This document shows, piece after piece, positions 26,942 to 27,105 of a stretch of DNA of 64,000 nucleotides. The notes under the pieces were generated by a model. It was not told the DNA's origin. It was given only the letters and a program-made list of their open reading frames with translations, and ran no database searches. The stretch lies in assembly GCF_058153355.1 (NCBI RefSeq), contig NZ_CM177019.1. The stretch is one strand, 5' to 3'. Both the position numbers and the translations under genes were made by a program. The first letter of the stretch is position 1. Each line of letters begins with the position of its first letter.

Positions 26942-27105
26942 TCGTAGGTCAGATAAGATACGTCAGCATCGCATCCGACAATAAGTGCCGGATGCGGCGT
27001 AAACGCCTTATCCGGCCTACGGTTCGATGCGATTCGTAGGTCGGATAAGATGCGTCAGCATCGCATCCGACAATAAGTGCCGGATGCGACCTACATTCAC
27101 ATGGC
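26942..27105. repeat. REP/BIME cluster (several palindromic units), includes an intron-less copy of the intron target
   Basis: Repeated gcatccgacaataagtgccggatgcg and aaacgccttatccggcctacg units. Confidence 0.6.

Follow-up and report, generated by a model that had tools for sequence, protein, structure and literature searches.

A 64,000-nucleotide stretch of the Escherichia coli chromosome (positions 1-64000, here called the window) carries a single group II intron, located between the convergent genes ybhC and ybhJ in an intergenic array of REP sequences. Very likely it is an ectopic insertion, in which an intron of the IIB1/CL1 type that homes to hok-family genes on plasmids entered a chromosomal BIME linker that resembles its home site. 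The evidence consists of exact intron boundaries, an intron-less allele of the locus in other strains, the hok home of related introns, EBS/IBS complementarity and covariation, and the rarity of REP insertions. From the distribution of the copies alone we infer that the window copy originated on a plasmid and moved from plasmid to chromosome.

An apparently intact IIB1/CL1-type intron

The intron and its main parts were located with Rfam and Pfam models.

24583-26941, minus strand: group II intron, IIB1/CL1-like, apparently intact, 2359 nt (Rfam RF02012 and RF00029)
26742-26889, minus strand: domain I core, RF02012 (group-II-D1D4-7), 112.5 bits (gathering score 34)
24664-26343, minus strand: intron-encoded protein of 559 amino acids with RVT_N, RT (YADD), maturase X and HNH endonuclease (Pfam)
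24583-24659, minus strand: domains V and VI, RF00029, 65.5 bits, model positions 1-77 of 77

Read on the minus strand, the intron runs from GTGCGACAAG at its 5' end to CTACCCGAC at its 3' end, and the exon-intron junctions read CTGACCTACGA/GTGCGACAAGAAG and GCTGCTACCCGAC/ATCGCATCGAAC (a slash marks a junction or insertion point throughout). The 5' terminal GTGCG agrees with the conserved GUGYG of group II introns. At the other end, the RF00029 model stops at position 24583, the final base of the intron, and its alignment contains both the AGC triad of domain V and the bulged A of domain VI. The reading frame in domain IV is preceded by 598 nt of intron and is uninterrupted, with an intact YADD motif. 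Its product matches the Pfam families RVT_N, RVT_1, GIIM and HNH, and it scores 369.5 bits against TIGR04416, an NCBI equivalog model for group II reverse transcriptases/maturases with a cut-off of 300. The nearest solved chain is 6ME0_C, the T.el4h RT of a Thermosynechococcus IIB1 intron (E = 2.4e-187, 627 bits); the IIA protein LtrA follows at 138 bits (1e-39) and the IIC RTs at about 120-130 bits (1e-34 to 1e-37). By similarity, the RT is placed in the chloroplast-like 1 (CL1) lineage. The element as a whole looks like a functional, endonuclease-bearing intron of the IIB1/CL1 type.

The insertion splits a tandem BIME array

The flanking genes and the parts of the array are as follows.

23236-24519, plus strand: ybhC, pectinesterase-like (Pfam PF01095), annotated in matching E. 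coli genomes
24535-24569, plus strand: REP palindromic unit of the y type, TGCCGGATGCGGCGTAAACGCCTTATCCGGCCTAC, forming part of the 3' exon; belongs to direct repeat D2 and shares 98% identity with 26986-27033
24570-24582, minus strand: ATCGCATCGAACT, the portion of the tail-to-tail linker that belongs to the 3' exon; the A at +1 (24582) is the presumed IBS3
26944-26979, minus strand: z-like REP palindromic unit, the proximal 5' exon; direct repeat D1, 93% identical to 27034-27093
27006-27049, minus strand: target sequence without an interruption, in the adjacent 92-bp BIME unit; equivalent junction between 27033 and 27034
27111-29396, minus strand: ybhJ, aconitase-family hydratase (Pfam PF00330), annotated in matching E. 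coli genomes

The stop codon of ybhC lies 63 nt from the 3' end of the intron. On the other side, ybhJ is located upstream of the intron in the same orientation, with 169 nt between its stop codon and the intron 5' end, and read-through from ybhJ could allow the intron to be expressed and spliced.

REPs are imperfect palindromes of 30-40 nt with a GTAG/CTAC tag that occur in alternating orientation (PMC3333891). The array in the window contains y-type and z-like palindromic units that alternate in tandem with a period of 92 bp, as found with a repeat finder, and the copy number varies between strains. Its direct repeats are spaced by either 92 bp or 2451 bp, with D2 belonging to the latter family. 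Since 2451 equals 92 plus the 2359 nt of the intron, we conclude that one tandem BIME array has been split by the insertion. The insertion point is found in a 15-nt tail-to-tail linker, 2 nt past the CTAC tail of a palindromic unit. One palindromic unit of the array fits the y consensus; the other begins with GTCGGATGCGATGC, and a BIME-2 would consist of y plus z2 units. The unit at 24535-24569 is a weak naRNA4/REP match, and its anatomy fits the REP described in PMC3333891.

The Rfam model for naRNA4 (RF02564), a REP-derived nucleoid-associated RNA, matches the y/z pair at 26947-27017 on the minus strand with 71.9 bits, above the gathering threshold, and this match overlaps the z-like unit. 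Weaker matches are found at 24524-24566 and 27039-27091. We take the match as REP sequence as such and not as evidence for a separate gene.

Comparison of the units in the window (24535-24582 and 26942-27096) with those at three other loci (L134-L136) revealed that the number of 92-bp units between ybhC and ybhJ depends on the strain: two-unit alleles cover 842 nt of our query, against 750 nt for those with one unit. At the equivalent junction, the one-unit allele common in E. coli reads CTACAA rather than CTACGA, which creates a mismatch in IBS1.

Several other features of the window were recorded. The GC skew of the plus strand is negative in every 8-kb bin of positions 1-64000; the sense strand of the intron is thus the G-rich strand, i.e. 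the lagging-strand template, which is compatible with replication-linked priming but is no evidence for it. A strain-specific insert of low GC content occupies 7000-17000 in the moaA-uvrB interval (GC 0.40 at 8001-16000). It is annotated with pentapeptide-repeat and hypothetical proteins, and only 24 of 5426 E. coli genomes cover at least 80% of it; its best-listed matches (EC42405, R32_14_1F, 2013C-4282 and WL297) are among the strains with the intron-less BIME allele that has T at -10. Further landmarks are a Moco riboswitch upstream of moaA (8889-9033, minus strand), six clustered tRNA genes with RtT repeats (51069-52016, minus strand) and the cpoB/ybgF thermometer (52943-53081, minus strand).

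Exact boundaries and an uninterrupted neighbour copy

A preliminary description of this DNA had proposed exon strings, exact boundaries and a nearly identical uninterrupted target about 100 bp from the insertion. We indeed find cttatctgacctacga at 26942-26957 and atcgcatcgaactgtaggccggataagg at 24555-24582. The uninterrupted copy exists on the minus strand as described, but it is located at 27006-27049, about 12 nt to the left of the 27019-27060 given for it, though still within the range 26942-27060 of that description; its equivalent junction is 92 bp away from the insertion point. It is identical to the proposed string in 42 of 44 positions, the two differences being found at -10 (T in the occupied site, C in the neighbour) and at +13. 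When the joined exons are aligned to the neighbour, 103 of 108 nt match without a gap and the junction is in register, so that the boundaries are offset by 0 nt. This resemblance is far beyond chance, yet the neighbour is the next repeat within this array, not an independent target.

Intron-less alleles corroborate the boundaries. The joined flanks (24583-26941 deleted; 842 nt) are contiguous in E. coli EC42405 at 99.9% identity, and two intron-less strains are identical to the joined exons across the whole BIME, including the T at -10. As these strains carry the joined sequence, the boundaries must be exact, and the intron has been inserted without duplication or deletion of target bases. The end of the Rfam domain V/VI model and the first and last bases of the intron, which are common to 13 other copies, lead to the same boundaries.

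Related introns reside in hok genes on plasmids

A search of 5426 complete E. coli genomes for further copies revealed none on a chromosome (0/5426); two of the genomes contain plasmid copies, with 97.2% identity. A collection of 72,556 plasmids yielded 20 full-length relatives, with 99.6% and 97.2% identity in E. coli, 97.7% in E. albertii and 77-80% in Citrobacter, Salmonella and Enterobacter. The plasmid replicons examined are mostly IncF. The intron 5' end was not found in viral contigs, and no other REP-borne copy was found in the complete E. coli genomes, the plasmid collection, a metagenome scan or a viral scan. In open-access papers, we found no description of this intron, of its hok home or of its insertion into a REP in E. 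coli.

The 5' junction could be read for 13 relatives, comprising eight plasmid copies and five metagenome contigs. Eleven of them are inserted in hok-family genes (7/8 on plasmids, 4/5 in metagenome contigs), and annotation places most of the other full-length plasmid copies over Hok genes. At home, the intron separates GA from A in the Glu codon of a conserved (L/M)AYE motif at the C-terminal end, three to four codons ahead of the stop codon in hok/srnB-type type I toxin genes (loci L001-L004 and L006-L010). When the intron is spliced out in silico, full-length Hok/Gef proteins result, with matches to PF01848 from end to end. In annotation, the unspliced genes appear as Hok variants that continue into the intron. 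Judged from these junctions, the lineage (76-99.6% identity) appears to home to hok-family genes on plasmids, mostly IncF, in Escherichia, Salmonella, Citrobacter and Enterobacter. The preliminary description had the intron homing to REPs; its regular home is instead in hok-family toxin genes of IncF plasmids, at their 3' end, and the number of REP copies found elsewhere is zero.

The two remaining relatives are located at sites that are neither hok nor REP. In L005 (CP057032.1, locus 1501-3859), the site reads GTCATGGCTTTCGA/ACAATG and contains an IBS1 mismatch at -4; in L013, a metagenome contig with its 5' junction at 1998, the 5' exon ends in TTGATGGCTTACGA. These two sites together indicate that the lineage now and then inserts ectopically.

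The closest relative of the window copy is L003 on plasmid pRHB33-C08_2, with 99.6% identity and 10 differences in 2359 nt. Its 5' exon ends in TCTGGCCTACGA/A, compared to TCTGACCTACGA/A in the window, and the srnB-like hok site continues as TCTGGCCTACGA/AGC. Over the positions closest to the junction, AACTCTGGCCTACGA/AGC in L003 and TTATCTGACCTACGA/ATC in the window are identical in 11 of 12 bases from -12 to -1, and in addition at the A at +1. Further upstream (-14 to -25), only about 1/13 of the distal 5' exon is shared with the hok site. If protein contacts in this distal region are needed, efficient endonuclease-dependent insertion at the REP site would not be guaranteed.

The REP site matches the recognition sequences of the intron

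The elements that may recognize the target, and their partners in the 5' exon, are positioned as follows.

26622-26627, minus strand: EBS1 TCGTAG (intron nt 315-320), located in a hairpin loop above the stem TATTCC/GGAATA and fully complementary to IBS1 CTACGA
26687-26691, minus strand: EBS2 CAGAG (intron nt 251-255), with the spacer T-A-A before it
26942-26947, minus strand: IBS1 CTACGA, formed by the CTAC tail of the palindromic unit and two linker nucleotides; 6/6 Watson-Crick pairs with EBS1
26950-26954, minus strand: IBS2 ATCTG, from -13 to -9, within the unit's stem arm; 4/5 pairs with EBS2, four of them contiguous

Complementarity of EBS and IBS had been named as a check on the target, and the pairings found (6/6 for IBS1, 4/5 for IBS2) bear it out. 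The earlier statement that the intron lies in a REP unit is approximately right: IBS1 and IBS2 belong to the unit, while the insertion itself took place in the linker, 2 nt past the CTAC tail.

Among 11 copies compared, both EBS1 and EBS2 covary with the exons. The sixth base of EBS1 follows exon position -6, with G facing C and A facing T. Similarly, EBS2 is CAGAG where the exon has CTCTG (L003 and L004) and CATGA where it has TCATG (L001 and L005) or TTATG. The stem of the EBS1 hairpin, drawn by hand, is 100% paired and contains one compensatory change. This comparison covers seven sequences, so that the statistics are weak. An RNAalifold fold of an isolated 120-nt piece of domain I, in which EBS1 is buried in a different helix and covariation is zero, was set aside.

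In IIB1 introns, a 5-bp EBS2-IBS2 helix is formed with positions -13 to -9, and a 3-nt spacer (N, EBS2a, A) is located 5' of EBS2 (PMC8643678). The layout of our intron agrees with this rule: in the copies compared, nt 248-255 consist of T-A/G-A followed by CAGAG or CATGA. The EBS2a-IBS2a contact with position -14 (intron nt 248-255; 26687-26694, minus strand) is a Watson-Crick pair only at the REP site, where it is A:T; at the hok sites it is A:A, G:T, G:A or G:G. Given this pattern, the recognition rules of the lineage may be incompletely understood. We read the 3' exon in the window and in L001-L008, and all nine sites have A at position +1, with which an EBS3 in the internal loop of subdomain ID would pair.

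Once the intron is taken out, the 64-kb window has only two sites that combine a 6/6 Watson-Crick IBS1 with A at +1, namely the occupied site and its neighbour. The occupied site is the best match in the window, with a better IBS2 than the neighbour. Its T at -10 (base 26951) is a rare variant; the neighbour has C at this position, so that an A-C mismatch interrupts the EBS2 helix at its centre and IBS2 is reduced to 3/5. The neighbouring unit is thus the next repeat of the array, unoccupied and a poorer target, and it is plausibly empty because the C at -10 weakens the EBS2-IBS2 interaction.

Well-matched REP targets are few

It had also been suggested that many more targets exist genome-wide. 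This is not supported: the exact 61-nt intron-less allele occurs once per genome and in only 15 of the 5426 E. coli genomes. We scanned species-representative genomes, one per species, for empty REP targets with the query TTATCYGRCCTACGAA, and at least 120 stretches were obtained. Sites with TTATCYGRCCTACGA/A (CTACGA/A) number at least about 6-15 per enterobacterial genome among the matches listed. By the same measure, there are at least nine in an E. coli genome, one of them with T at -10, at least eight in E. albertii, none of those listed having T at -10, and at least 6-15 in the Citrobacter, Pseudocitrobacter and Cedecea genomes, which seem to be fully covered. Nearly all of the sites listed carry the C at -10 that breaks the EBS2-IBS2 helix. 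The K-12 genome contains roughly 580 REPs (PMC3333891), and the number of CTACGA/A sites is about what would be expected by chance for CTAC followed by GAA among them.

Origin of the window copy

The conserved CTAC tail of the REP unit, together with GA/A, imitates the C TAC GA/A of the hok site, and the rare T at -10 in the REP stem allows four contiguous EBS2-IBS2 pairs. The excised lariat RNP would base-pair with this target via EBS1, EBS2 and EBS3 and reverse-splice into the strand that carries ybhJ. Target-primed reverse transcription would then generate the DNA copy, with neither duplication nor deletion.

Four other explanations fit worse than ectopic insertion. The intron could be a REP-homing element, with the palindromic unit as its regular target and many REP copies as potential or actual sites. 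The position of the insertion 2 nt from a REP tail, the location of IBS1 and IBS2 in the unit, the near-identical unit 92 bp away, the at least 6-15 REP sites with TTATCYGRCCTACGA/A per related genome and the REP site having the sole Watson-Crick EBS2a-IBS2a pair all speak in favor of it. Yet the chromosomes of all 5426 complete E. coli genomes are free of the intron, the read junctions divide into 11/13 hok, 2/13 other non-REP and 0/13 REP sites, and the covariation of EBS1 and EBS2 follows hok exons. In addition, the adjacent REP copy is empty and the 64-kb window has one intron copy, the exact allele is single-copy and confined to 15/5426 genomes, and the common allele mismatches IBS1 with its CTACAA. 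We therefore regard REP homing as improbable. Even less can be said for an ancestral intron at ybhC/ybhJ that was precisely lost elsewhere and gave rise to the plasmid copies. The direction of transfer is not formally demonstrable from sequence, and precise intron loss is conceivable in principle, but none of the 5426 genomes has the intron at this locus, not even the 15 whose BIME allele is identical, the diversity of the lineage (76-99.6%, several genera) is found on plasmids and in hok genes, and the window copy is only 10 nt away from a plasmid copy. This makes an ancestral presence very improbable.

Acquisition at the DNA level, through recombination (homologous or illegitimate) or integration of a plasmid and thus without reverse splicing, has nothing specific in its favor, although REP/BIME arrays are known hot spots of recombination (PMC1525189). 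The junctions match the catalytic boundaries of the intron to the base, no plasmid- or hok-derived bases were found in the flanks and junctions examined, removal of the intron restores the empty allele exactly, and the site fits the intron's own EBS1 and EBS2; we give such an event hardly any credence. The REP hairpin might alternatively have served as a structural signal for a stem-loop-guided insertion of the IIC kind, as the site is located 2 nt past a hairpin and its CTAC tail. Class C (IIC) introns insert after terminator or attC hairpins, are shorter, have a short domain I, and are devoid of EBS2 and an endonuclease domain. Our intron shares with them the position just downstream of a hairpin, but differs in having an EBS2, which covaries with the exons, an HNH domain, 598 nt ahead of the reading frame and an IIB1/CL1-like protein. 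The regular hok site moreover lies in coding sequence and not behind a hairpin, and targeting of this kind is thus extremely improbable.

Relation to known mobile elements

We compared the intron to known systems. EcI5 (from pO157; subgroup IIB1, CL1 RT) and T.el4h, also known as Th.e.I3 (PDB 6ME0/6MEC), have the same general architecture with an RT-X-D-En protein, and they likewise use an IBS1 from -1 to -6, a 5-bp IBS2 from -13 to -9, an N-x-A spacer and a single recognized 3'-exon position. Like our intron, EcI5 is plasmid-borne in Enterobacteriaceae. The window intron is nevertheless a different element, with hok-family genes as its home; a megablast search of the 5426 complete E. coli genomes returned no pO157-type copies. 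EcI5 depends on a Watson-Crick EBS2a-IBS2a pair for its mobility, and this pair is absent at the hok sites of our lineage.

Spread from plasmids to chromosomes has been reported for enterobacterial introns, for example Kl.pn.I5 in K. pneumoniae MGH (Leclercq and Cordaux 2012, PMC3522654). As in these cases, a near-identical copy of a plasmid intron is found at a chromosomal intergenic site with conserved IBS motifs, available sites are few and the distribution among strains is patchy. Here, in contrast, the intron occupies a REP/BIME linker on the chromosome that resembles a home in coding sequence, and the donor plasmid is putative. The insertion sequences IS1397, ISKpn1 and IS621 target REPs (PMC1525189) and, like our intron, are mobile elements at harmless intergenic positions in E. 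coli BIMEs. They enter palindromic units repeatedly and specifically by means of transposases, whereas the intron would rely on RNA-DNA base pairing, and only one REP insertion is found among all its known copies. In P. putida, two of nine group II intron copies adjoin REPs, an association that was not called specific (Tobes and Pareja, PMC1525189).

Implications

Our case represents a new insertion by a known kind of element, instructive rather than surprising, and it leaves the understanding of how group II introns work unchanged. It illustrates that a nearby uninterrupted copy of the target does not by itself establish a homing site. Two by-products may be of use: an intron lineage that homes to the AYE codons of Hok toxins on IncF plasmids and exhibits natural EBS/IBS covariation, and a natural single-base contrast at -10 between T in an occupied and C in an empty site. 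One may speculate that REPs followed by GAA act as decoy targets for a hok-homing plasmid intron, pre-adapted by the CTAC tail that is conserved in every E. coli REP unit, and that the window copy is a possible first step of a host shift to chromosomal REPs. We consider this unlikely; if true, about 10 sites per genome, counted as lower bounds in our scan, would require only one or two changes in EBS2, and the A:T EBS2a-IBS2a pair found only at the REP site might help. What the case shows, base by base, is how a plasmid retroelement can reach the chromosome, here through a chance resemblance between a functionally neutral, repetitive sequence and the 12 nucleotides that the intron RNA reads at its usual site.
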